Source: Prochlorococcus sp. MIT 0801
GTDB taxonomy: Bacteria; Cyanobacteriota; Cyanobacteriia; PCC-6307; Cyanobiaceae
NCBI RefSeq assembly: GCF_000757865.1
Contig: NZ_CP007754.1
Span: 60,001-92,000, forward strand
Direction: 5' to 3'
DNA length: 32,000 nt
Position numbers and translations under genes: made by a program. How positions within the stretch are numbered: the first letter of the stretch is position 1; every line of letters starts with the position of its first letter. The notes below the pieces were generated by a model. The model was not told the DNA's origin and did not search any database. It was given only the letters and a program-made list of their open reading frames with translations. Positions 4,257 through 26,078 of this stretch are shown one piece after another.

Positions 4257-4712
4257 ATGACTTTGGAAAGAACCTTTGTTGCTATCAAGCCAGATGGTGT
4301 GCAAAGAGGTTTAATCGCTGAGATTCTTGGTCGTTTTGAAACTAAAGGGTTCAAATTAGTAGGCCTAAAGCAACTAAAACCAAGCAAAGAACTTGCTGAA
4401 AAACACTACGGTGTTCACAAAGATCGTCCTTTCTTTTCAGGTTTAGTTGATTTCATAACAAGTGGACCTGTTATAGCTATGGTTTGGGAGGGTGAAGGTG
4501 TTATTGCAAGTGCGAGAAAATTGATTGGAGCAACAAAGCCTCTTGAGGCAGAACCTGGAACTATTAGAGGTGATTTAGCGGTGAATATTGGTCGTAATGT
4601 CATTCATGGTTCTGATGGTTCTGAGACGGCAGTTTTTGAAATCAACTTATGGTTCCAAGAAAATGAACTTGTTGATTGGACTCCATCAGATCAAGTATGG
4701 AGAGTTGAATAA
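4257..4712 (+). CDS. ndk: Nucleoside diphosphate kinase
   Basis: [19 protein letters not shown]... and NVIHGSDG (active-site His). I prefer the ATG at 4257 to the TTG at 4245 used by the ORF track. Confidence 0.96.
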
Positions 4713-9392: not shown

Positions 9393-9417
9393 AAATAAAA
9401 CACTAATAAAACAGTGA
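9393..9417 (+). repeat. B-repeat copy 1 (AAATAAAACACTAATAAAACAGTGA), followed by TTATGACTGGGATTTGG
   Basis: The same 25-mer recurs at 11998 and 12058, always within about 100 nt of an argJ-terminus copy. Confidence 0.75.
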
Positions 9418-9468
9418 CGTCGTTATGACTGGGATTTGGTCAAAAAAAGCGGTTTTTATTTTGGTGTT

Positions 9469-11997: not shown

Positions 11998-12082
11998 AAA
12001 TAAAACACTAATAAAACGGTGATGGGGTTATGACTAGGTTTCGGGCGGTTTTAACAGAAATAAAACACTAATAAAACAGTAA
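11998..12082 (+). repeat. B-repeat copies 2 and 3 in tandem
   Basis: AAATAAAACACTAATAAAACGGTGA at 11998 is followed by TTATGACTAGGTTTCGG. AAATAAAACACTAATAAAACAGTAA at 12058 is followed by CTATGACTAAT. Confidence 0.75.
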
Positions 12083-12133
12083 TGACTTTCTTGAGATTGA
12101 CTGCTATGACTAATATTTTGTAGTTATATTTGT

Positions 12134-12157: not shown

Positions 12158-12325
12158 CCTAAGATCTATTCCACTGGAATGGATTTGAGAGATTGCTTTT
12201 TCAAATATACCGCTTTTATACCACTTGAAAATATATCAAGGATTTAATTTCTACCTTTCTAATGGTGTAAGTCACTCTATTTAACTATTTTAATTTCCAC
12301 TTTGACCAAAGTGTGATTAAAGTAA

Positions 12326-12658
12326 TTAGTTTGCTCCTATTACTTTAATTTGATTACCAGCATCACTTAATTTCATCAACTCGTTTTCATACTCATCAGT
12401 AAACGTTTCGACTCTTCTTGCGTAAACAGCATCTGCATTTAAGTCTTCGATCATTTCATAACCAAAGAATTCCAATAATTCCTCTTGATTCTTGAAACAT
12501 CTATCACTCCACTCATAATTCTTGTTCCCCTTCGCATTTTCATACTCATAGCACTCATAAAAATAATCAGTTCTATACCGCTCTACTAATGCAAACTCTT
12601 TTTGCTCTTCCATTGGGAGTTTGTCGTAAATGCTCCAACCAATTATCAAGACTGGCAT
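12326..12658 (-). CDS. Cassette A gene 4, hypothetical 110-aa acidic protein
   Basis: A paralogue lies at 23947..24279. Its start overlaps the upstream gene by 13 nt. Confidence 0.6.
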   Translation of the reverse strand: MPVLIIGWSIYDKLPMEEQKEFALVERYRTDYFYECYEYENAKGNKNYEWSDRCFKNQEELLEFFGYEMIEDLNADAVYARRVETFTDEYENELMKLSDAGNQIKVIGAN

Positions 12659-12882
12659 GTGTTTACATCCTCAACTTTTTTATTCCACCCCTGAAAACTT
12701 GAATTGGAATCGGGTGCTGGTTGTTCTCGAATGCCTTTTAACTTTTTCCATCTGATGTAGAGAGCGCCAAGCAACCAACTTTTAATTAATGACTTTGTAC
12801 CATTATTTAATTGGTTCTCTTGTTTCTTATTGAACTTTTCTGAATCAAGAAGTTCTTGTTTCCAATCTATTTCTTCAGTCAT
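12646..12882 (-). CDS. Cassette A gene 3, hypothetical 78-aa protein
   Basis: Paralogues lie at 24267..24506 and 30230..30433. It overlaps both neighbouring genes. Confidence 0.55.
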   Translation of the reverse strand: MTEEIDWKQELLDSEKFNKKQENQLNNGTKSLIKSWLLGALYIRWKKLKGIREQPAPDSNSSFQGWNKKVEDVNTCQS

Positions 12883-13057
12883 TGACTTTTGCTCTCAACT
12901 TGTAGAAGGTTTCTTCACATCGACAAGAAATACCTTTGTATTCATCTGGGAAAGATTTCATCCAAGTAGGAATACTCATCGTCACGGGATAACCACCTTT
13001 AATGTGAAAGACAACCTCTTTCTTTTTTGCGTCTATGAAATGCGGAGGAAGACTCAT
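12875..13057 (-). CDS. Cassette A gene 2, hypothetical 60-aa protein (CRCEETFYKLRAKVND tail)
   Basis: Paralogues lie at 24499..24678 and 30058..30237. By hand count, 9 of about 20 substituted codons between copies A and A' are synonymous in this frame, against 3 in the antisense frame. Confidence 0.55.
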   Translation of the reverse strand: MSLPPHFIDAKKKEVVFHIKGGYPVTMSIPTWMKSFPDEYKGISCRCEETFYKLRAKVND

Positions 13058-14651: not shown

Positions 14652-14675
14652 ATTAATGCCGATTACACGACTTAG
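14652..14675 (+). repeat. R3: argJ-terminus copy (att-like)
   Basis: ATTAATGCCGATTACACGACTTAG matches R0 at 18 of 24 positions. It shares its downstream flank with R4. Confidence 0.65.
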
Positions 14676-14945
14676 CTCGTAAATGTAGTCATATGAATTG
14701 ATTGTAATTGTAAATATTTTTTTGGTCACACTTTGGTCACAGTTGATTTAAACGTATCTTTTCAGAAATGATTTAAGTATTCTCAAGATTTATTGTAAGA
14801 CTCTTAGAGAACTTGCTTAGACAGTAAACAACAAGGAGCAATAAAAAACGAATTTGACAGCTCAGATATAAGGAAGTTTAGAAACTTTTAAAATGATTTT
14901 AATAGCTCTAAATAATGCATAGAATCTTTAATTAACTGAAAATAA

Positions 14946-15013
14946 AAATGATTATCATATACATAATTAATAACCAAGTACCCTAATTATGAAATTTAAA
15001 AATGATTATCATT
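14946..15013. promoter_or_regulatory. Two Fur-family (Fur/Zur)-like boxes
   Basis: The palindrome ATGATTATCAT occurs at 14948-14958 and 15002-15012, inside direct repeats of about 30 nt. The second copy, AATGATTATCATT, equals the central 13 nt of the classical Fur box apart from the symmetric centre base. Confidence 0.45.
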
Positions 15014-15108
15014 GTAATTATCTATGGACATAGAAGTTTATATCCCCTTGTTATAATAGACTTTTAACTCTTCTTATATTATAGTTAGAGATGTAAACAA
15101 AAGTTACT

Positions 15109-15255
15109 ATGATTAAAAATTTCTTTAAGTATAGAGTTTTAAGCTATGCAATTATTTCCAATGGAAATGAAGAAGAATTATGTCCAGGATGTGGCTGTGT
15201 TTGTCCCTGTGAATGTTCAGAATGCGACGTTTGTTCACCTTGTAAAGATCATTAA
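15109..15255 (+). CDS. Cys-rich 48-aa ORF (metallothionein-like or RiPP-precursor-like)
   Basis: MIKNFFKYRVLSYAIISNGNEEELCPGCGCVCPCECSECDVCSPCKDH has 9 Cys in the last 24 residues. It is below the ORF-track cutoff. A TATAAT lies at 15052. Confidence 0.45.
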   Translation: MIKNFFKYRVLSYAIISNGNEEELCPGCGCVCPCECSECDVCSPCKDH

Positions 15256-15256
15256 T

Positions 15257-15279
15257 CTTAATGCGATTACACAACGTAA
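15257..15279 (+). repeat. R4: argJ-terminus copy (att-like, 1-nt deletion)
   Basis: CTTAATGC-GATTACACAACGTAA matches R0 at 19 of 24 positions. It starts immediately after the stop of the Cys-rich ORF. Confidence 0.6.
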
Positions 15280-15389
15280 CTCCTGATCTATGTTATGCCA
15301 ATTGATTGTAGGGATTAATTTTTTGGTCATACTTTATTCACCTTTGATTTAAATCTATTTTTTTAGACTCTCTGCTCAAAGAACAATTA

Positions 15390-15525
15390 GTGAAGTTATT
15401 ACTGAGGTTCCAAGGGGAAACAGCCATTGGAGGTAACGGGGAAAAGCGGTGAAAATCCGCTACTGTCCCGCAGCTGTGAAGTATCGATATTCATCGATAT
15501 CAGTCAGAACGCCCGCCTTATTTCA
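15390..15525 (+). promoter_or_regulatory. Cobalamin (B12) riboswitch
   Basis: GGTTCCAAGGGGAAAC...GGTGAAAATCCGCTACTGTCCCGCAGCTGTGAAG...CAGTCAGAACGCCCGCC matches the conserved core and B12-box region as I remember them. It lies directly upstream of hupE. Confidence 0.8.
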
Positions 15526-15546
15526 CAATTCGACGAGGATCGATCT

Positions 15547-16179
15547 ATGACGTTTCCCTATTTTGGGCGTAAGCAATTTCTTGCAGCTTTTCTTCCACTC
15601 TTGTTTTGGTTGACTTTTTTAGTTGCTCCAGTGTTCGCTCATCACCCTTTTGGTATGGGAGATAGTGCTGGGCTGTCAGCCTGGCAAGCTCTGCTTAGTG
15701 GCATCGGGCACCCATTACTTGGACCTGATCATTTGCTTTTTATGTTAGGCATCGCCCTTCTTGGGATCAAAAAAACGAAGCAATGGGTGTTCCCTCTTTT
15801 AGTGGTTGGCTTGTTAGGTAGTGCATTAGTGCAGTTGCAGCCATTGCCTGATGTAATGTCTGCCTGGGCAGAAGCAGTTGTGTCTTTATCTTTAGCCATA
15901 GAGGGGTTAATTGTTCTAAATCTTTTGAGCTCAAAATGGCTATTGCCAATGTTCGCTTTACATGGCTATTTACTTGGAAGCACAATTGTTGGTGCTGAAC
16001 CGACTCCTCTCATAGGTTATTTTTTTGGTCTTCTTCTTGCACAAGGATCATTACTTTTAGTTGTAACAGCAACATCTCAAAAAGTGATCAAAAAGTTTGA
16101 TATTAATAGCCGTAATTTGGTGGCTGGTATTTGGATAGGTATAGGACTTGCCTTCTCTTGGGTTGCTATTATTCCATAG
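15547..16179 (+). CDS. hupE: HupE/UreJ-family metal (Co/Ni) transporter
   Basis: Signal-like N-terminus, then AHHPFGMG and GHPLLGPDHLLFMLG, with several TM helices. The tracked ORF start at 15427 runs through the riboswitch, so I prefer the ATG at 15547. Confidence 0.82.
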   Translation: MTFPYFGRKQFLAAFLPLLFWLTFLVAPVFAHHPFGMGDSAGLSAWQALLSGIGHPLLGPDHLLFMLGIALLGIKKTKQWVFPLLVVGLLGSALVQLQPLPDVMSAWAEAVVSLSLAIEGLIVLNLLSSKWLLPMFALHGYLLGSTIVGAEPTPLIGYFFGLLLAQGSLLLVVTATSQKVIKKFDINSRNLVAGIWIGIGLAFSWVAIIP

Positions 16180-16390: not shown

Positions 16391-19300
16391 TCAACCAAAC
16401 CCTGTCATTTCAGTAAAGAGAGCTTTGTTCTCGGCTGACTCTGCAAAGCCAAGCAGTGCTTCGTATCTTGTTTCAGCTCCGCTATTAAGTTGACCTAACC
16501 AATAAATCAAACCACTCGTATCAGCCTCACGACCTAAAACATTTTTATAGAGAGTATTGACATAGGTTGAATCAGATACATCTTCTCCATAGCGTTGTTT
16601 AAATTCTGCAGACCCTAAAAAGGAGGAGGCAACCACTCTGATTGTATTTCTACCAGAACTGAAATTATCAATCCAATACTTCAATCCATCCGCATCAGGA
16701 AGACGCTTGAAGGAAGCGTTATAGAGGCGGAACATACGACCTGAATCTGTATTTAAACCAGTGACTTGATCAAATGTGCCTTTGATATCTGCGATTGCAC
16801 TCACATCATGGAATGAACTTGTAGTTGCTTCTCCCGTAAATTGTAAGGATGGGTAGCCAGTGATGTCGTCATACCCAGAATCAGTTTTGATTTGATAAAC
16901 GCCATTACCTTTGTTGTAGAACTTATAATCACTAAATTTACCGCTATAAGTTTTAACAACGTCTACTTTTGATTCCTCTACGGTTTGATCAGAAAATTGA
17001 ATGTATTCAATATTTTTGAGCGTATCAGTTCCATCAGTTGTTCCTGTTGTTCGTTGATCCGCGATTTGTAAGGTGTCTGAGCCACGGGTAAAGGAGTACT
17101 TAGAGAAGCTGCCAGAGTAGACAATGGTGTCTGTACCCGCTTTCCCATCAATCGAGTCATTACTACTTGTGCTTTGTATAATGTCAGTGCTAGATGTTCC
17201 TGAGATTGTTGCTGTGAACTCTTCCAGATCATTAACTATAAGTGTGTTGTATAAATCAGGAGAAGTTAAACCTTTTGCATCAGTGACTCTGACAACAACT
17301 GTATAAGTACTTTGAGCCTCATAATCAGGTGAAGTCTTGATTTTTAATTGATTACCATCTATATAAAAATTACTGTTACCTGAACTTTCTACATAACCAC
17401 CAATTAAGGAAAATGTATGAGTATCTGATTGATCTTCATCTACTGCTGAAATAATGGCAACTGTTGAATCTGCAGCAATATTTTCGTCAAAGTAATAGGA
17501 GGAGAAGTTCCATGACGTAGGTGCTTCATTGAGATCCTTGACAGACAGAGTGAATGCTTCGGCATAGGTTTCACCACCACTATCAGTTGTTTGTAAGCGA
17601 ATCTTGTAGGAGGATTTTGTTTCGTAATCCGGAGAGGCTTTAATTTTTAAGGATGATCCATCAATCGTAAAGGAGCTGTTATCTGTATCATCAGTACCGG
17701 TGACTAAAGAGTAGGTATGCGTATCGGATGTATCATCATCTGTCGTAGAGAGAGTTGCGACCGTAGAAGCAGCAGCAATATTTTCATTAAAACTGCTTGA
17801 AGATAAGGTTAATGCTGTAGGTGTTTCATTGAGATCATTCACCGAGAGTGTGAAAGCTTTAGCGTAGGTTTCACCACCACTATCAGTGACTTGTAAGCGG
17901 ATATTGTAGGAAGACTTTGTCTCGTAATCAGGAGAAGAATTTATCTTTAAATATGTTATTGCTACTCCTTTATAGATGGTGAATAAACTGTTATCGGTGT
18001 CACCATTACCACTGATTAAAGAGTAGGTTCGTAGATCGGAAGTATCAGCATCTGTACTACCTATTGCCGAGACGATTGTAGAGGCAGCAATATTTTCATT
18101 GAAACTTGTTGAGATTAATCGAAGGTCTGTAGGCGCTTCATTAACATCGGCAATAGTAGTCTCAATCCATTGATTAGAAGAATTCCCAGCGAGGTCTGTC
18201 GCTTTTACATATATCGAATAAATGCCATTGGAATTGCTATCAAGATGATTTTCATAATCAGGAGCATTATTAAACGTTAATAGACCAGTAGTGGAATTAA
18301 TTGAAAAGAATGTGGGGTCATTTCCTCCATTAATTGACCAAGTAACAGCTTCGTTGGCAGTAAAGGTATGAACAGTTGTCGTATTCTCATTGATTGTTTT
18401 CTTACTATTTTCCGCACCAGCACTTCCTGAAGGACCCGTAATTAATGGTGCAGTTGTGTCTTCATTAACATCTGCAATGGTAACTTCAATCCATTGATTA
18501 GAAGAATTTCCAGCGAGGTCGGTTGCTTTTATATATATCGAATAAATGCCATTGGAATTGCTATCAATTTTATTTTCATAATCAGGAGCGTTATTAAATG
18601 TTAATAGACCAGTAGTGGAATTAATTGAAAAGAATGTGGGATCATTTCCTCCATTAATTGACCAAGTAACAGTTTCGTTGGCAGTAAAGGTATGAACAGT
18701 TGTCGTATTCTCATTGATTGTTTTCTTACTATTTTCCGCACCAGCACTTCCTGAAGGACCCGTAATTAATGGTGCAGTTGTGTCTTCATTAACATCTGCA
18801 ATGGTAACTTCAATCCATTGATTAGAAGAATTTCCAGCGAGGTCGGTTGCTTTTACATATATCGAATAAATGCCATTGGAATTGCTATCAAGATGATTTT
18901 CATAATCAGGAGCGTTATTAAATGTTAATTCACCAGTAGTGGAATTAATTGAAAAGAATGTTGGGTCATTTCCTCCACCAATGGACCAAGTAACAGCTTC
19001 GTTGGCAGTAAAGGTATGAACAGTTGTCGTATTCTCATTGATTGTTTTAAAGGACTCTGATGCTCCAGCACTTCCTGAAGGACCCGTAATTAATGGTGCA
19101 GTTGTGTCTTCATTAACATCTGCAATGGTAACTTCAATCCATTGATTAGAAGAATTCCCAGAGAGGTCGGTTGCTTTTACATATATCGAATAAATGCCAT
19201 TGGAATTGCTATCAAGATGATTTTCATAATCAGGAGCATCTTTAAATGTTAATAGACCAGTAGTGGAATTAATTGAAAAGAATGTGGGATCATTTCCTCC

Positions 19301-20512
19301 ATTAATTGACCAAGTAACAGTTTCGTTGGCAGTAAAGGTATGAACAGTTGTCGTATTCTCATTGATTGTTTTCTTACTATTTTCCGCACCAGCACTTCCT
19401 GAAGGACCAGTGATTAATGGTGCTGTTGTGTCTTCATTAACATCTGCAATGGTAACTTCAATCCATTGATTAGAAGAATTCCCAGAGAGGTCGGTTGCTT
19501 TTACATATATCGAATAAATGCCATTGGAATTGCTATCAAGATGATTTTCATAATCAGGAGCGTTATTAAATGTTAATTCACCAGTACTAGAATTAATTGA
19601 AAAGAATGTGGGGTCATTTCCTCCATTAATTGACCAAGTAACAGTTTCGTTAGCAGTAAATCTATGAACACTTGTCGTGTTTTCATTAATGGTTTTAGAG
19701 GACTCTGATGCTCCAGCACTTCCTGAAGGACCCGTAATTAATGGTGCAGTTGTGTCTGCTGTTGAGTCTTCATCACCCCATAAACTCTTTAATGCTTCAA
19801 TGTCTACAAGAGAAAACCATGATTGATATTTACCCCATTCATCAGGGGCTCCATATGCCATCGCTGTTTCTTCTACTGTCGTAGAATATGTTGTGCCATA
19901 AACATCTCCATCGTTATTACTAAACGGATGCTCTAAATGAAGTGCATGACCTAATTCATGAAGAATTAAATGTTCCCAGAAATTACTTCCTTTATTTTTA
20001 TAATGATCATTATTCTTTGAAGTCAATGCAACTTCATGATTCATATATCCTAAAGAATCTGTTTCAGGATTCATTTGACCAGCATAACTAGATCCTGTTG
20101 TTGCATATGTATGTTCATAGATACTTATATTGGCATCTGTTCTATTAAATACGTATTGAAAATCTACACCTAAAATATCATCTAATTTAGCTATTGTTTC
20201 TTTTATAAAATCTATTCTATACGAAGGCATATTAAGAGCATCTATATAATAATTGTTATAAGTAGTTGAAACTCCCTCAGTATCAATCCATATATTAATT
20301 GTATTATTATTTATTTTAACGTTATCGTACCAACTTGAATCTTGTGTTAGATGATAATATTTAAGGCCAGAAGTTTGAGTAGTATTATTACTATTACTAT
20401 TACTATTACTATTATTATTTGAATTTAGAGTATTAAATGAATCAGATAAATTTACTTCACTATGAAGCAAGGAGATCAGTTCTGGATTAGAAGAATTGCA
20501 TAGAAAACACAA
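16391..20512 (-). CDS. Giant secreted/surface-type protein: metzincin protease domain, 5+3 cadherin-like repeats, RTX-like/DUF4214-like C-terminus
   Basis: HELGHALHLEH (HExxHxxGxxH) at 19928-19960. There are five near-identical 108-aa repeats with cadherin-like F.I...TG.L.....DYE and V.D.NE, then three diverged cadherin-like repeats. The C-terminal roughly 265 aa is shared with 20855..22546. The start is uncertain: TTG at 20512, and no ATG for about 90 codons. Confidence 0.8.
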   Translation of the reverse strand: MCFLCNSSNPELISLLHSEVNLSDSFNTLNSNNNSNSNSNSNNTTQTSGLKYYHLTQDSSWYDNVKINNNTINIWIDTEGVSTTYNNYYIDALNMPSYRIDFIKETIAKLDDILGVDFQYVFNRTDANISIYEHTYATTGSSYAGQMNPETDSLGYMNHEVALTSKNNDHYKNKGSNFWEHLILHELGHALHLEHPFSNNDGDVYGTTYSTTVEETAMAYGAPDEWGKYQSWFSLVDIEALKSLWGDEDSTADTTAPLITGPSGSAGASESSKTINENTTSVHRFTANETVTWSINGGNDPTFFSINSSTGELTFNNAPDYENHLDSNSNGIYSIYVKATDLSGNSSNQWIEVTIADVNEDTTAPLITGPSGSAGAENSKKTINENTTTVHTFTANETVTWSINGGNDPTFFSINSTTGLLTFKDAPDYENHLDSNSNGIYSIYVKATDLSGNSSNQWIEVTIADVNEDTTAPLITGPSGSAGASESFKTINENTTTVHTFTANEAVTWSIGGGNDPTFFSINSTTGELTFNNAPDYENHLDSNSNGIYSIYVKATDLAGNSSNQWIEVTIADVNEDTTAPLITGPSGSAGAENSKKTINENTTTVHTFTANETVTWSINGGNDPTFFSINSTTGLLTFNNAPDYENKIDSNSNGIYSIYIKATDLAGNSSNQWIEVTIADVNEDTTAPLITGPSGSAGAENSKKTINENTTTVHTFTANEAVTWSINGGNDPTFFSINSTTGLLTFNNAPDYENHLDSNSNGIYSIYVKATDLAGNSSNQWIETTIADVNEAPTDLRLISTSFNENIAASTIVSAIGSTDADTSDLRTYSLISGNGDTDNSLFTIYKGVAITYLKINSSPDYETKSSYNIRLQVTDSGGETYAKAFTLSVNDLNETPTALTLSSSSFNENIAAASTVATLSTTDDDTSDTHTYSLVTGTDDTDNSSFTIDGSSLKIKASPDYETKSSYKIRLQTTDSGGETYAEAFTLSVKDLNEAPTSWNFSSYYFDENIAADSTVAIISAVDEDQSDTHTFSLIGGYVESSGNSNFYIDGNQLKIKTSPDYEAQSTYTVVVRVTDAKGLTSPDLYNTLIVNDLEEFTATISGTSSTDIIQSTSSNDSIDGKAGTDTIVYSGSFSKYSFTRGSDTLQIADQRTTGTTDGTDTLKNIEYIQFSDQTVEESKVDVVKTYSGKFSDYKFYNKGNGVYQIKTDSGYDDITGYPSLQFTGEATTSSFHDVSAIADIKGTFDQVTGLNTDSGRMFRLYNASFKRLPDADGLKYWIDNFSSGRNTIRVVASSFLGSAEFKQRYGEDVSDSTYVNTLYKNVLGREADTSGLIYWLGQLNSGAETRYEALLGFAESAENKALFTEMTGFG
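18134..19753 (-). repeat. Five tandem 324-bp coding repeats (108 aa each)
   Basis: The unit starts with TTAPLITGPSGSAGA and ends with IADVNED. The period of 324 nt was read directly from recurring strings at about 18140, 18464, 18787, 19111 and 19436. Confidence 0.9.
20384..20419 (-). repeat. Hexanucleotide microsatellite (ATTACT)4 plus ATTATT variants, encoding NSNSNSNSN
   Basis: Read directly from the sequence. It lies in the 5' region of the giant gene. Confidence 0.85.
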
Positions 20513-20854: not shown

Positions 20855-22546
20855 TTATCCGAAACCTGTCATTTCAGTGAAGAGAGCTTTGTTTTCTGCT
20901 GATTCAGCAAACCCTAAAAGCAACTCATATCTCGTCTCTAAACCACTATTCAAGTTTCCTAACCAATAGTTATAACCTTCTTGGTCATATTCCCTACCTA
21001 AAACATTGACATAGAGAGTTTCAACATACTTAGCGTTCGTAACATCTTCACCATAGCGTTGTTTAAATTCAGCAGAAACAAGAAAGGATGATGCCACTGC
21101 TCTATCATCATTTTCTCCAGATGTGTATTTGCCTATCCAGTACTTCAATCCATCAGAATCTGGAAGCCTTTTAAAAGCAGCGTTATAGAGACGGAACATC
21201 TTTGCGTCTTTTGTATTTAACCCAGTTACTTGATCAAATGTTCCTTTAATATCAACAATGGCACTGATATCTCTAAATGAGCTGGTTGTTGATTCTCCTG
21301 TAAATGTTAATAATGGTAGTCCTGTGATGTCATCAGTTGTTCCTGAGTTTGATTTAATCTCATATGATCCATTACCTTTATTGTAGAATTTATAATCACT
21401 AAAAATACCGCTATAGTTTTTAATAACGTCTACTTTTGATTCTTCTACTGTCTGATCAGAGAACTGAATGTATTCGATATTTTTTAGAGTATCGGTACCA
21501 TCATTTGTTGCGGTTGTTCTTTGATCTGCGATTTGTAGTGTGTCAGTACTACGTGTAAAGGAATAATCAGCAAATTTTGATGAATAAATACAAGTATCGG
21601 AACCTGCCCCACCATCAATTACATCATTTCCACCAGACCCTGTAATTGAATCTGCTCCATCTAGTGCATTGATTTCATTTGCCTCACTTGTTCCATTAAT
21701 AATGTCTGATGAATCAGTGGCTGAATTAGAAGTAAAGGTAAGCTCGGCTGCTACTAGTGAATATTCGCGATCTCCGAGAATTGATAGCGATGAGCTCATT
21801 ATAAGTCTCCATTTATTTGCCGAGTTAGAAAATAGTAGTCCAGTTGGATCAAGATAACTCTTTTCTGGAGGAGCCAAATTTGTCTCATTTATTTCCCAGG
21901 TGAGCCCATCATTAGAGACTCCAACATAAATTCCTTGGGATTGATCTGGAAGTGTTACAGGTGAGGAAGACATTATTGCTATCCAATCATTGTCCTCTGC
22001 TTTTAAAACCTCAAAGTCAACATATCCCCCTTCCACTCTTTTCCCTGAATCTACTAAAAAGTTTGTTCCTTTTGTAGTTGTTGAAGTTGCACTGAGGATA
22101 ACTTCATTGGCTAGTGTGGTCGCTTCAGTATCTGATTTTACCCAGTATATTCTCACTCTTCCATCTGGAAGAACAACTGAATCCGGCACACCCCAAGCCT
22201 CATCACCGTTGTGTGAGATACCTGTTGATGAAACTCCAGACAGACTTAATCCATCCTTTGAGATTAATGCTGTAAAAATTTCATGTTTCCCCGAATTAGG
22301 GTCCACTTCTATGTAATAGGCTCTACGTATTCCTTCTGTGGTGGTAACAATTGTAAGGTCTTGTATGAAATTAATTTGTCCTTCTTGGGTTAATTTAAGA
22401 TTAGTAGACATTGCAGCAATCGTTACTCCACCATTGCCGGTGTAATAGAGTTGATATGCTTCACCACTATTGTCTACATCATTTTCCAGGTGAGGACTGA
22501 CACCAAGTGTGTCAAGTTCTTGAATATTCTTAAGTGACCAAGTCAT
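20855..22546 (-). CDS. Asp-box (BNR)/beta-propeller-like protein with RTX-like repeat and DUF4214-like C-terminus
   Basis: SNDGLTW (SxDxGxTW Asp-box) and GSGGNDVIDGGAGSDT (GGxGxD). The C-terminal roughly 265 aa is paralogous to the giant protein and ends identically in FAESAENKALFTEMTGFG. Confidence 0.7.
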   Translation of the reverse strand: MTWSLKNIQELDTLGVSPHLENDVDNSGEAYQLYYTGNGGVTIAAMSTNLKLTQEGQINFIQDLTIVTTTEGIRRAYYIEVDPNSGKHEIFTALISKDGLSLSGVSSTGISHNGDEAWGVPDSVVLPDGRVRIYWVKSDTEATTLANEVILSATSTTTKGTNFLVDSGKRVEGGYVDFEVLKAEDNDWIAIMSSSPVTLPDQSQGIYVGVSNDGLTWEINETNLAPPEKSYLDPTGLLFSNSANKWRLIMSSSLSILGDREYSLVAAELTFTSNSATDSSDIINGTSEANEINALDGADSITGSGGNDVIDGGAGSDTCIYSSKFADYSFTRSTDTLQIADQRTTATNDGTDTLKNIEYIQFSDQTVEESKVDVIKNYSGIFSDYKFYNKGNGSYEIKSNSGTTDDITGLPLLTFTGESTTSSFRDISAIVDIKGTFDQVTGLNTKDAKMFRLYNAAFKRLPDSDGLKYWIGKYTSGENDDRAVASSFLVSAEFKQRYGEDVTNAKYVETLYVNVLGREYDQEGYNYWLGNLNSGLETRYELLLGFAESAENKALFTEMTGFG

Positions 22547-23809: not shown

Positions 23810-23946
23810 TTAAAATCTACAACTCTATTTATTAAAACTACCTCTAAAAAATATGGCTAGACTTCTTTACTTATCTATTTAATTTCAATGCGTATTAACA
23901 CTGGCTAGATAATTTGAAAGCGTGATTAGTTTTAGACAGAGTGTGA

Positions 23947-24279
23947 TTAGTTGGCTTCTATGACTTTTATTTGATTACCAGCATCACAGAATTTCATCAA
24001 CCCCTTTTCATACTCATCAGTAAACGTTTCGACTCTTCTTGCATACACGGCATTTGCATTTAAGTCTTCGATCATTTCATAACCGAAGAACTCAAATAAT
24101 TCCTCTTGATTCTTAAAGCATCGATTACTCCATTCATAATTCTTGTTCCCCTTCGCATTTTCATACTCATAGCTCTCATAAAAATAATCAGTGCCATAAC
24201 GCTCTACTAATGCAAACTCTTTTTGTTCTTCCTCTGGGAGTTTCTCATAAATACTCCCCCCCATTATCAAGACTGGCAT
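23947..24279 (-). CDS. Cassette A' gene 4 (paralogue of 12326..12658)
   Basis: 110 aa, collinear with copy A along its full length. Confidence 0.6.
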   Translation of the reverse strand: MPVLIMGGSIYEKLPEEEQKEFALVERYGTDYFYESYEYENAKGNKNYEWSNRCFKNQEELFEFFGYEMIEDLNANAVYARRVETFTDEYEKGLMKFCDAGNQIKVIEAN

Positions 24280-24506
24280 AAGTTTGTATCTTCAATTTTT
24301 TTATTCCACTCCTGAAAACTTGAACTGCAATTAGGCATTTCTGGATCTGGTCTGATACCTTTCAACTTTTTCCATCTGAGGTAGAGAGCGCCAAGCAACC
24401 AATTATCAGTTAATGACTTTGTACGATTTTTTAATAGGTTTTCTTGTTTCTTATTGAAATTTTCCGAATCAAGCAGTTCTTGTTTCCAATCTATTTTTTC
24501 AGTCAT
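24267..24506 (-). CDS. Cassette A' gene 3 (paralogue of 12646..12882)
   Basis: 79 aa, overlapping both neighbouring genes. Confidence 0.55.
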   Translation of the reverse strand: MTEKIDWKQELLDSENFNKKQENLLKNRTKSLTDNWLLGALYLRWKKLKGIRPDPEMPNCSSSFQEWNKKIEDTNLCQS

Positions 24507-24671
24507 TGACTTTTGCCCTCAACTTGTAGAAGGTTTCTTCACACCGACAAGAAACTCCCTTGTAGTGATCTGGGAAAGATTTCATCCAAGTAAGAATTGC
24601 CATTGTCACGGGATCACCTTTGATGTAAAAAACAACCTCTTTGTTTTTCTCATCTATGAAATAGGGAGGAA
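24323..24671 (-). repeat. Left arm of a 349-bp near-perfect inverted repeat
   Basis: It is the reverse complement of 30065..30413. I found a single substitution by eye (TAC versus CAC codon). Confidence 0.85.
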
Positions 24672-24678
24672 TATTCAT
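24499..24678 (-). CDS. Cassette A' gene 2 (paralogue of 12875..13057)
   Basis: MNIPPYFIDEKNKEVVFYIKGDPV... I chose the internal ATG at 24678 by alignment with the other two copies. Confidence 0.5.
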   Translation of the reverse strand: MNIPPYFIDEKNKEVVFYIKGDPVTMAILTWMKSFPDHYKGVSCRCEETFYKLRAKVND

Positions 24679-24869: not shown

Positions 24870-25121
24870 TCATGCTGATTCCTTCTCATCAAAATTAGGA
24901 ACCGTCAATACATCATCTATTTCTTCAGAAATCGGGTTATACATCCACTCACCCATTTCACATAGAAGATGGAACCTGTCTTGAGGGTTGAGAGTTTTCA
25001 TTTTCTCGCAAGCATTCACCACACATTCATCCATTGCATTCATTATTTCTGTCTTCTTGCTCATACCTCTATCAACACACATTATGTTCAACAATAATTC
25101 TTCGGAAGGTTGATCAAGCAA
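24870..25121 (-). CDS. Hypothetical protein
   Basis: Open frame only. It overlaps the end of the recombinase remnant by 8 nt. Confidence 0.3.
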   Translation of the reverse strand: MLDQPSEELLLNIMCVDRGMSKKTEIMNAMDECVVNACEKMKTLNPQDRFHLLCEMGEWMYNPISEEIDDVLTVPNFDEKESA

Positions 25122-25640
25122 GTCCAGTTTGTTTCCTAATTGAACGATAATAACAACCTTCGTATCTTAAACGCAAAACCAAACTTTCTTTCTCATCATT
25201 TGTCTTTGGTCTGCCTCCAATATTTCCTCCTATTTCTCTTCTATGGTTAATGCTCTCTTGAGTTCTCTCAATCACCATCTGATGCTCTACTTCTCCCAGG
25301 CCAGATAAAAGACCAATGATGATTGGAGCAAACTTTCCAAGTGCTCTGGTATTAATCATTCCATCCGTTGTCCTTACATGAATGCCTTTCTCTTGAAGGT
25401 CGTAAAGAGTATTGATGCACTGCCTCTGATTTCTAAAACCCCTATCCAATTTGGTGAATACGATTTCTTCCCCTTCCTCAAAGGTTCCTAATGCTGCCTC
25501 GAGTTGTGGTCTTGCTTTATCCGCACTTGAGACAGTCTCCTGAAAAACAACAACGCAACCTCTTCAACTTGAGCAACAATAGAGATTTGTTTATTGGCGA
25601 ACTTCCTCGTATAGCCGATGCACTTGTATTCAAGTCTGTC
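25114..25640 (-). pseudogene. Small serine recombinase (resolvase/invertase family), decayed
   Basis: GCVVVFQETVSSADKARPQLEAALGTFEEGEEIVFTKLDRGFRN...GEVEHQMVIERTQESINHRREIGGNIGGRPK fits the resolvase core. The N-terminal IGYTRKFANKQ lies in another frame and has RKFA where the catalytic RVST-type serine is expected. The C-terminal HTH is truncated. Confidence 0.65.
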
Positions 25641-25915: not shown

Positions 25916-25983
25916 AGTGCCTGTGCCAATCAATAAACCCTCCTGTTAAGGATTTATTCTTAATCCTCTTCCGGTAAATTCTG

Positions 25984-26078
25984 TGTGTGAGGAGTTGAGA
26001 TCCTCCGCAGTGGAAACAAGGAAACACTTGCGCCTGATCTCACAAAGAAACCGCCTAACAGAACTAGGCGGCTTTTTT
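25984..26078 (+). ncRNA. Yfr2-family-like sRNA candidate
   Basis: The 5' TGTGTGAGGAGTTG (25984-25997) is complementary to the Yfr1 motif. GGAAACAAGGAAAC follows, then a terminator (CCGCCTA-N7-TAGGCGG plus T6). A TAAATT -10 candidate lies at 25975. The length of about 94 nt fits the family. Confidence 0.5.

Follow-up and report, generated by a model that had tools for sequence, protein, structure and literature searches.

A putative Zur-regulated, metallothionein-like protein family of Prochlorococcus with a cyanophage counterpart

No phototroph on Earth is more abundant than Prochlorococcus, the growth of which is sensitive to picomolar Zn, Co, Cd, and Cu. The metallothionein SmtA has a zinc-finger-like fold and the composition Zn4Cys9His2. 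The BmtA/SmtA proteins of marine Synechococcus (e.g. SYNW0359 of strain WH8102) are small and Cys-rich with a proposed role in zinc handling; bmtA has 2 Zur boxes in its promoter region, at least one of which is located beyond the -35 element, and Zur is the sole zinc sensor available (PMC9337993, PMC3323870). In WH8102, bmtA is activated by Zur (PMC9337993). For Prochlorococcus, in contrast, strains MIT9312 and NATL2A are stated to contain no metallothionein gene, and the way in which the organism handles excess zinc is described as unknown (PMC8374608). The initial annotation of the DNA described here likewise noted that Prochlorococcus is generally considered to lack bmtA. Here we describe a 32,000-nt stretch of the genome of Prochlorococcus sp. 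MIT 0801 (contig NZ_CP007754.1, positions 60,001 to 92,000, referred to as the window), in which a short open reading frame (ORF) for a Cys-rich protein is preceded by 2 boxes of the Zur type. On balance, we lean toward the view that it encodes a Zur-controlled, metallothionein-like metal-thiolate protein that buffers or hands on Zn, Co, or Cd and falls outside the known metallothionein families. It appears to be the strongest candidate to date for a protein that handles metals in the manner of a metallothionein in Prochlorococcus. The gene and its predicted control region are as follows.

14942..14964 (+), distal Zur box, ATAAAAATGATTATCATATACAT, 14 of 16 positions in agreement with the consensus NTNANAATGATNATCATTNTNAN
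14996..15018 (+), proximal Zur box, TTAAAAATGATTATCATTGTAAT, 16 of 16 positions in agreement with NTNANAATGATNATCATTNTNAN
15057..15085 (+), predicted sigma-70 promoter from a promoter scan, with -35 TAGACT at 15057-62, a 17-nt spacer, and -10 TATAGT at 15080-85
15109..15255 (+), gene for the Cys-rich protein, ATG start, 48 amino acids, examined by codon-position and pN/pS tests

The product, MIKNFFKYRVLSYAIISNGNEEELCPGCGCVCPCECSECDVCSPCKDH, begins with a variable N-terminal segment of about 20 to 24 amino acids, continues with a core in which 9 Cys are placed at residues 25 to 45 in the spacing CxxCxCxCxCxCxxCxxCxxC, and ends with KDH. The length, Cys number, and spacing agree with the initial annotation, which had also called the ORF unannotated; the exact protein is in fact present in NCBI nr, only as an unnamed or hypothetical protein. 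With 9 Cys, the 21-residue core is 43% Cys, and the protein shows the low mass and high content of Cys in CxC and CxxC motifs that are traits of metallothioneins. The core contains no aromatic residues, which are found in the N-terminal segment (F5, F6, Y8, and Y13). An AlphaFold2 model based on a 103-sequence alignment, with a predicted local distance difference test (pLDDT) score of 55.5 and a predicted template modeling (pTM) score of 0.21, contained a helix at residues 4 to 16 and a disordered core, as is typical of a thiolate protein in the apo (metal-free) state.

No match to the window peptide was obtained in a scan of Pfam (E<=0.01), none of 19 family members matched any of the Pfam metallothionein families at E<=10, and a profile search of the PDB sequences gave 0 matches at E<=10. 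Searches of NCBIfam and PHROG returned no meaningful family, and no ferredoxin-family model matched among the family members. The PF02069 model for BmtA and SmtA did not match the protein, which is not a homolog of these metallothioneins, in line with the remark in the initial annotation that it lacks their His-containing signature. Unlike BmtA and SmtA, the protein has no zinc-finger-like signature and no internal His; the sole His is C-terminal and is absent from 22 of the 103 aligned members, which departs from the Zn4Cys9His2 type. Further differences are the placement of 9 Cys within 21 residues, the acidity of the core, and the presence of an additional N-terminal segment that is variable. 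The vertebrate metallothionein β-domain and the fungal Cu-metallothioneins of Neurospora and Agaricus contain 9 or 7 Cys in CxC and CxxC motifs within about 25 to 30 residues and have no stable fold without metal. The Cys-rich protein resembles them in Cys number, in the CxC and CxxC arrays, and in the predicted lack of a stable metal-free fold, but its sequence is unrelated, its family is found in Prochlorococcus and cyanophages only, and it is marked by CPC and CEC, acidic residues, and the C-terminal His.

To a word-indexed protein search with the single peptide, only its own cluster was visible, and homologs surfaced only in a degenerate-pattern scan of genomes, an exhaustive HMMER search, and a profile search. 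The pattern scan of the GTDB genomes identified 6 Prochlorococcus loci, 2 of which (L001 and L002) were 98% identical and had the same context as the window, while the other 4, including those in strains SB and MIT 9314, were of the high-light (HL) type and encoded a 45-amino acid version, MVITFTKHLLTDTLILNEKEVCPGCGCVCPCECTDCEECSPCKDH. The HMMER search gave 21 representatives at 50% identity, and the profile search gave at least 161 clusters at 90% identity, nearly all from marine metagenomes and a few from Prochlorococcus genomes. Thus, a search for homologs with conserved Cys spacing, proposed as a check in the initial annotation, was successful. All of the named members are annotated as "hypothetical protein", some clusters contain 100 to 158 member sequences, and no relevant paper came up when the literature was searched in full text for the motif. 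The motif common to the clusters is C-x-G-C-G-C-x-C-P-C-x-C-x-D-C-x-x-C-S-x-C, mostly ending with K-D-H. In the alignment of 103 members, 93 had exactly 9 Cys, with the spacing conserved, 79 were 45 amino acids long, and 79 terminated with His; C25, C28, G29, C30, C34, and C42 were invariant, and C32, P33, C36, D38, C39, S43, and C45 were conserved in at least 90%. It was also noted that a Nif11-type N-terminal domain was fused in frame to a family member on a single metagenomic contig of 790 nt (P0098, L013:216-482), which could be either a genuine chimera or an assembly artifact.

Among 13 distinct DNA sequences of the core, the variable columns at the first, second, and third codon positions numbered 10, 7, and 21 of 21, with TGT and TGC used interchangeably. 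The mean pairwise proportion of synonymous differences (pS) was 0.59 versus 0.16 for nonsynonymous differences (pN), a ratio of about 0.27. The third-position variation and the excess of pS over pN indicate purifying selection on the Cys frame, which rules out both a chance ORF and an overlapping alternative frame. The ORF is a genuine gene under selection. Judging from the sequences, its products would make up a new, lineage-specific family of the metallothionein-like, Zur-regulon kind, with an unusual architecture and a phage counterpart, the function of which we infer.

The palindrome ATGATTATCAT, of which the initial annotation had noticed 2 copies, is present exactly twice in the window, at 14948-14958 and 15002-15012. 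With at most 1 mismatch on either strand there were 8 matches in the window, a number reached by 0 of 100 dinucleotide shuffles. The proposal that the palindromes are Fur-family boxes is borne out by their fit to the cyanobacterial Zur consensus (RegPrecise, quoted in the Methods of PMC9337993), and this fit suggests Zur as the regulator that binds them. The proximal box is the only site with at least 15 of 16 matches in the 32-kb window. From the ends of the boxes to the ATG there are 96 and 150 nt, rather than the approximately 50 and 105 nt first estimated.

Boxes were found in L001-L007, L010, and L014-L018. Every locus with enough upstream DNA and an intact 9-Cys gene had them, and they were conserved where the surrounding DNA has diverged. 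The scores were 16 and 15 in L007, 16 and 16 in L010, and 15 in L014 and L015, with quite different neighboring genes, and no Zur box was found in L019 and L020, in which the gene lacks the last Cys. The window and the loci taken together (161,098 nt) contained 16 sites with at least 15 of 16 matches, versus 0 in each of 20 shuffles; 14 of these strong sites were located at most 300 nt upstream of a Cys ORF, and the other 2 upstream of a neighboring operon for DUF1097, nitrile hydratase (NHase), and COG0523 proteins. The center of the proximal box was at a nearly constant distance of about 97 to 102 nt from the ATG in low-light I (LLI), HL, mobile-element, and other island contexts, and the distal box was kept at about 150 to 156 nt in the LLI and HL loci. 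The spacing between the boxes was 53 to 54 or 32 to 33 bp, which corresponds to whole helical turns and places the boxes on the same face of the helix.

The predicted promoter in the window aligned with TTGACT-17-TATATT, which is kept in L004, L014, and L015 although the DNA between box and ATG has otherwise diverged; L006 and L017 had near variants. This promoter sets the proximal box at about -83 to -85 in 6 contexts and the distal box at about -139, so that both boxes precede the predicted -35 element and neither covers the core promoter. The gene thus resembles bmtA in its 2 Zur boxes, but differs in that both are upstream of the predicted -35 and in that it is often paired with hupE. The position of the boxes and the precedent of bmtA in WH8102 favor Zur as an activator over simple repression; on the basis of the predicted promoter, our analysis favors activation of the gene by Zur when zinc is sufficient or in excess.

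Further downstream are a cobalamin riboswitch and a hupE gene, as the initial annotation had observed, and direct repeats of about 110 nt bracket the module of Zur boxes and Cys ORF.

14653..14766 (+), upstream copy of the direct repeat, 75% (blastn) to 81% (MAFFT) identical to 15258-15367
15258..15367 (+), downstream copy of the direct repeat, separating the Cys ORF from the riboswitch
15388..15534 (+), cobalamin riboswitch aptamer, RF00174, 60.9 bits, E 6.6e-13, gathering score 31.5
15547..16179 (+), hupE, encoding a HupE/UreJ secondary metal permease and predicted cobalt importer (HupE_UreJ, PF04955, E 7.2e-15)

In marine cyanobacteria, HupE is predicted to be a cobalt importer under the control of a B12 riboswitch, and a Synechocystis mutant was rescued by Co or Met (PMC4284471). 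The Cys ORF had initially been seen as cargo separate from the riboswitch and hupE, a view that does not agree with the location of hupE directly 3' of the Cys ORF in all 6 genome loci, which represent 2 distant clades. In the HL loci, hupE follows 14 nt after the Cys ORF without a riboswitch, and the pair therefore looks like an operon. The riboswitch and both repeat copies are also present in L001 and L002, whereas the HL loci lack the riboswitch and the downstream repeat; only in the lineage of the window does this repeat separate the module from the riboswitch and hupE. No terminator was detected in a scan between the Cys ORF and hupE of the window. RNA folds of both strands of the repeat showed nothing beyond shuffled sequences (z +1.6 to -0.3), and there was no Rfam match; the repeat may mark a cassette boundary or be the scar of a recombination event. 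A total of 806 member sequences make up the HL-type hupE cluster, for which the nearest relatives do not exceed 61% identity and the gene call extends into the Cys ORF. These data, along with a deletion fusion of Cys ORF and HupE (P0026), indicate that the pair is a flexible cassette in HL cells. We also noted that an alternative frame of the Cys core is open in the HL loci and in frame with hupE (L004:6074-6784; P0131). Gene callers report a HupE of 234 to 236 amino acids that starts inside the Cys ORF in these loci, which is probably an annotation artifact, and the frame is the same as the one used as a signal peptide in the phages described below.

In members of the L007/L010 type, the Cys ORF is convergent to an operon for a COG0523 protein, an accessory protein, the α and β subunits of NHase, and a DUF1097 protein. 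The NHase α subunit carries CTLCSC, the motif of cobalt-type NHases. The full contig of L007 extends into genes for zinc uptake.

L023, 443-8312, zinc-homeostasis neighborhood on a low-GC Prochlorococcus contig

The gene order on this contig is the Cys ORF, the genes for COG0523, the accessory protein, NHase α and β, and DUF1097 (all on the minus strand), a gene for a 158-amino acid protein of unknown function, znuB, a FUR-family gene, znuC, and a probable znuA, which puts the Cys ORF about 5 kb from the last 4 genes. The order of these 4 genes is that of the Prochlorococcus zur-znu cluster (PMC3323870). A Zur box with 15 of 16 matches at position 4380 lies upstream of the minus-strand NHase-COG0523 operon, and the cobalt-type NHase thus apparently is under Zur control, which would be unusual. 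A weaker box of the same type (13 of 16 in a hand alignment) is located in the znuC-znuA intergenic region, 38 nt from the ATG of znuA, where it overlaps the core promoter in a repressor geometry, unlike the boxes of the Cys ORF. The Cys-rich gene thus has in common with the Zur-regulated COG0523 and znuABC genes the type of Zur box and the neighborhood on L023 (PMC2770081, PMC3323870), but its product is a thiolate peptide of 45 to 48 amino acids and not a GTPase or transporter, and the position of its boxes relative to that at znuA suggests a different mode of control.

Other contexts were found as well. On L014:1-8129, a family member and a Zur box with 15 of 16 matches are part of a mobile element with genes for a VapE-like primase, a phage major capsid protein, and a large serine recombinase. 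The element looks like a tycheposon similar to phage-inducible chromosomal islands (PICI), a class that to our knowledge has been reported without extra cargo. One member was located after cynABD-cynS and others among small island ORFs, and the gene 3' of the Cys ORF was convergent or unrelated in L007/L010, L014, L016, L017, and L019. The combination of the same gene and the same Zur boxes with varied neighbors points to a self-contained mobile module that recurs beside zinc and cobalt genes.

A scan of IMG/VR identified relatives on 62 viral contigs (L025-L086), 44 of which contained the full motif. This branch of the family had not been foreseen in the initial annotation. The contigs are fragments of T4-like cyanomyoviruses, and the 9-Cys core occurs in 3 forms; examples are listed below.

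L033, 3001-3144 and 3056-3547, phage example
L009, 2325-2468, phage example

The phage Cys ORF is flanked on one side by an hsp20-adjacent gene and on the other by a conserved gene, the product of which is secreted or structural. The Cys core overlaps, in another frame, the signal-peptide codons of this conserved gene, such that the DNA for CxGCGCVCPCEC also encodes A(L/M)VVVVSALANV. By codon position of the Cys frame, the variable columns numbered 6, 5, and 14 of 18. The third positions of the Cys frame are the second positions of the overlapping gene, where they give V/A swaps, and the concentration of variation at these sites indicates constraint on the Cys frame and dual coding in this region. 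At the N-terminus the phage ORFs differ from the host version and have a sequence in common with an unrelated phage protein family, and no Zur boxes were found at them, which marks the Cys core as the portable functional unit. In tblastn searches of isolate phage genomes, phage-type peptides gave N-terminal similarity only or no match, and the intact motif was absent from the isolates P-TIM40, S-RIM14, and S-CAM9.

We propose that the product is a small cytoplasmic metal-thiolate protein that would work as a metallothionein or metallochaperone. The β-domain of mammalian and other vertebrate metallothioneins binds 3 divalent ions with 9 Cys, and by analogy the 9 thiolates would bind about 3 Zn(II), Co(II), or Cd(II) ions, or a larger number of Cu(I). 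The N-terminal part varies and can even be replaced. The zinc sensor Zur would control transcription via 1 or 2 boxes, some 85 and 139 bp ahead of the presumed start, and would turn the gene on at sufficient or excess zinc. Co-transcription with the gene for the HupE permease would take place in HL strains, and in the low-light lineage of the window there is probably read-through into the riboswitch-controlled hupE. Zinc buffering would thereby be coupled to cobalt import, which makes sense in that Zn competitively inhibits Co uptake in Prochlorococcus, according to Hawco and Saito (2018) as cited in PMC9337993. Metal binding and its stoichiometry, the identity of the regulator, the sign of the regulation, and co-transcription are features that we infer from sequence.

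A broader scenario can be put forward only tentatively, and we consider it doubtful as a whole. It holds that this is a widespread flexible-genome family of Prochlorococcus's own, activated by Zur at sufficient zinc and partnered with the cobalt permease HupE to deal with the antagonism of Zn and Co by which Prochlorococcus is limited in the ocean, and that in T4-like cyanophages this 9-Cys core serves as an auxiliary gene, overprinted where a structural or secreted phage protein has the codons for its signal peptide. If true, the same DNA would encode both a CxC-repeat protein and a hydrophobic signal peptide, of which few cases are documented, and the phage version would be a possible new auxiliary metabolic gene in an unusual dual-coding arrangement. 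As a Zur-linked thiolate protein that occurs commonly among wild cells, the product is a concrete and testable candidate for the missing excess-zinc function, its gene rides on islands and mobile elements and adjoins the only candidate cobalt importer, and activation by Zur would extend to Prochlorococcus what was found for a metal-storage gene in WH8102.

Several observations weigh against a Zur-controlled, metallothionein-like protein. The strongly acidic core and the aromatic N-terminal part are both atypical of classical metallothioneins, and 9 Cys in CxxC and CxC arrays could bind an iron-sulfur (Fe-S) cluster. The core motif AATGATNATCATT of the boxes also resembles the classical Fur box, and sequence alone cannot separate Fur, Zur, and other Fur-family regulators. 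Should transcription begin close to the boxes instead, Zur would simply repress the gene. Production of the protein would then be confined to zinc starvation, a pattern that is less fitting for a buffer. Finally, several Cys ORFs have no metal gene nearby, and a genome of the low-light LLII/III type contains hupE without a Cys ORF, a Zur box, or a riboswitch at the gathering score, which makes the pairing lineage-specific.

Of the alternatives, the one that fares best is a dedicated metallochaperone or accessory protein for cobalt (or nickel), which would take the ion imported by HupE, or feed the COG0523 protein and the cobalt-type NHase, or would modulate the permease directly, in the manner of MntS, a small protein that modulates Mn transport. 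This would account for the hupE gene directly 3' in 2 clades, with its operon-like arrangement in the HL strains, for the divergent members beside COG0523 and the CTLCSC NHase, and for the B12 riboswitch on hupE in the window, which implies cobalt (PMC4284471). We nevertheless regard it as unlikely, given that many members have no hupE, NHase, or COG0523 neighbor, that phages carry the gene alone, that the NHase operon and the Cys ORF run toward each other and are not co-transcribed, and that the boxes are of the zinc-sensor type.

The type of box bears also on the proposal of a small Fur-regulated, iron-responsive protein that binds iron or an Fe-S cluster, in keeping with the similarity of the box core to the classical Fur box, with the loosely ferredoxin-like C-terminal CxxCxxCxxC, and with the location of "Zur boxes" near iron genes in Prochlorococcus MED4 (Barnett et al., PMC3323870). 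The literature offered no Prochlorococcus Fur-box consensus that would tell Fur from Zur. However, the flanks of the box fit the Zur-specific consensus in 16 of 16 positions, the same type of box precedes the COG0523 operon and, in a weaker form, lies between znuC and znuA beside the FUR-family gene on the same contig, and there are no iron genes nearby and no ferredoxin-family match, so that this proposal seems quite improbable.

We consider it slightly more improbable still that the ORF encodes the precursor of a ribosomally synthesized and post-translationally modified peptide (RiPP), in which the N-terminal 24 or so residues would be the leader, the Cys part the core, and the maturase would be encoded elsewhere. 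The layout is indeed that of a leader and a core, and like the precursors of prochlorosins the ORFs are short Prochlorococcus genes in which an N-terminal segment precedes a C-terminal part that contains Cys. The Nif11-type domain in P0098 is of the prochlorosin leader type, but this fusion is limited to the single short contig and there is no other Nif11 match in the family; likewise, a model for the epilancin precursor (lanti_ElxA) matched weakly, but at 12 to 19 bits versus a cutoff of 75 and over the CGC stretch only. In prochlorosins and most RiPPs the leader is conserved, whereas here the core is nearly invariant and the leader is variable or replaceable. There is no GG or GA cleavage motif, and no LanM/ProcM, radical-SAM, or other maturase in the window, in loci L001-L024, or in about 12 host contexts, which agrees with the weak standing given to this alternative in the initial annotation, where no maturase had been seen nearby. 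The RiPP proposal is defeated by the pairing of a conserved core and a variable leader, the missing cleavage motif, and the missing maturase, and it would leave the Zur boxes and the metal-gene neighbors unexplained. As for SCIFF/ranthipeptide precursors, there was no such NCBIfam match at E<=10 and no radical-SAM gene in any context. Lastly, that the ORF is non-functional, be it a chance ORF, a regulatory upstream ORF of hupE, or the shadow of an alternative frame, as might be suspected from its short length, the signal peptide encoded by the same phage DNA, and the alternative frame open into hupE in HL hosts, is largely refuted and barely credible, since the third-position wobble and the pN/pS ratio belong to the Cys frame while an alternative frame would then vary mostly at its own second codon positions, the 9 Cys are kept across all those clusters, and the gene downstream is often convergent, unrelated, or lacking and the ORF cannot therefore be a leader of hupE.

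Elsewhere in the window, the core genes alaS, speA, ndk, gatB, coaE, and argJ are followed by a flexible island from about 9.4 kb, which includes cynS. A 47-nt repeat (AAATAAAACACTAATAAAACAGTGACG...) is present at 9393-9439, at the boundary between core and island just after argJ, and at 11998-12044 and 12058-12104, 2.6 kb inside the island; the copies may be remnants of attachment sites, and no tRNA genes were found in the window. A module of about 740 nt is present at 12322-13057 and 23943-24678, 11.6 kb apart and 83% to 91% identical, with 2 small minus-strand ORFs of 110 and 78 amino acids that had no Pfam match. A giant repeat protein of 1373 amino acids is encoded at 16391-20512 (-), with five 324-nt tandem repeats in the gene. 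Its paralog of 563 amino acids at 20855-22546 (-) contains DUF4214 and RTX repeats, and the 2 genes have about 1.3 kb of 3' and downstream sequence in common (72% to 83% identical). In strain SB, a gene for a similar giant RTX-like protein (L004:16-5208) precedes the pair of Cys ORF and hupE. The island also contains a truncated resolvase gene at 25114-25449 (-), which covers only the C-terminal part of the Resolvase N-terminal domain and suggests a decayed mobile element, and a Cyano-1 RNA (RF01701, 66.1 bits) at 25981-26045 (+).

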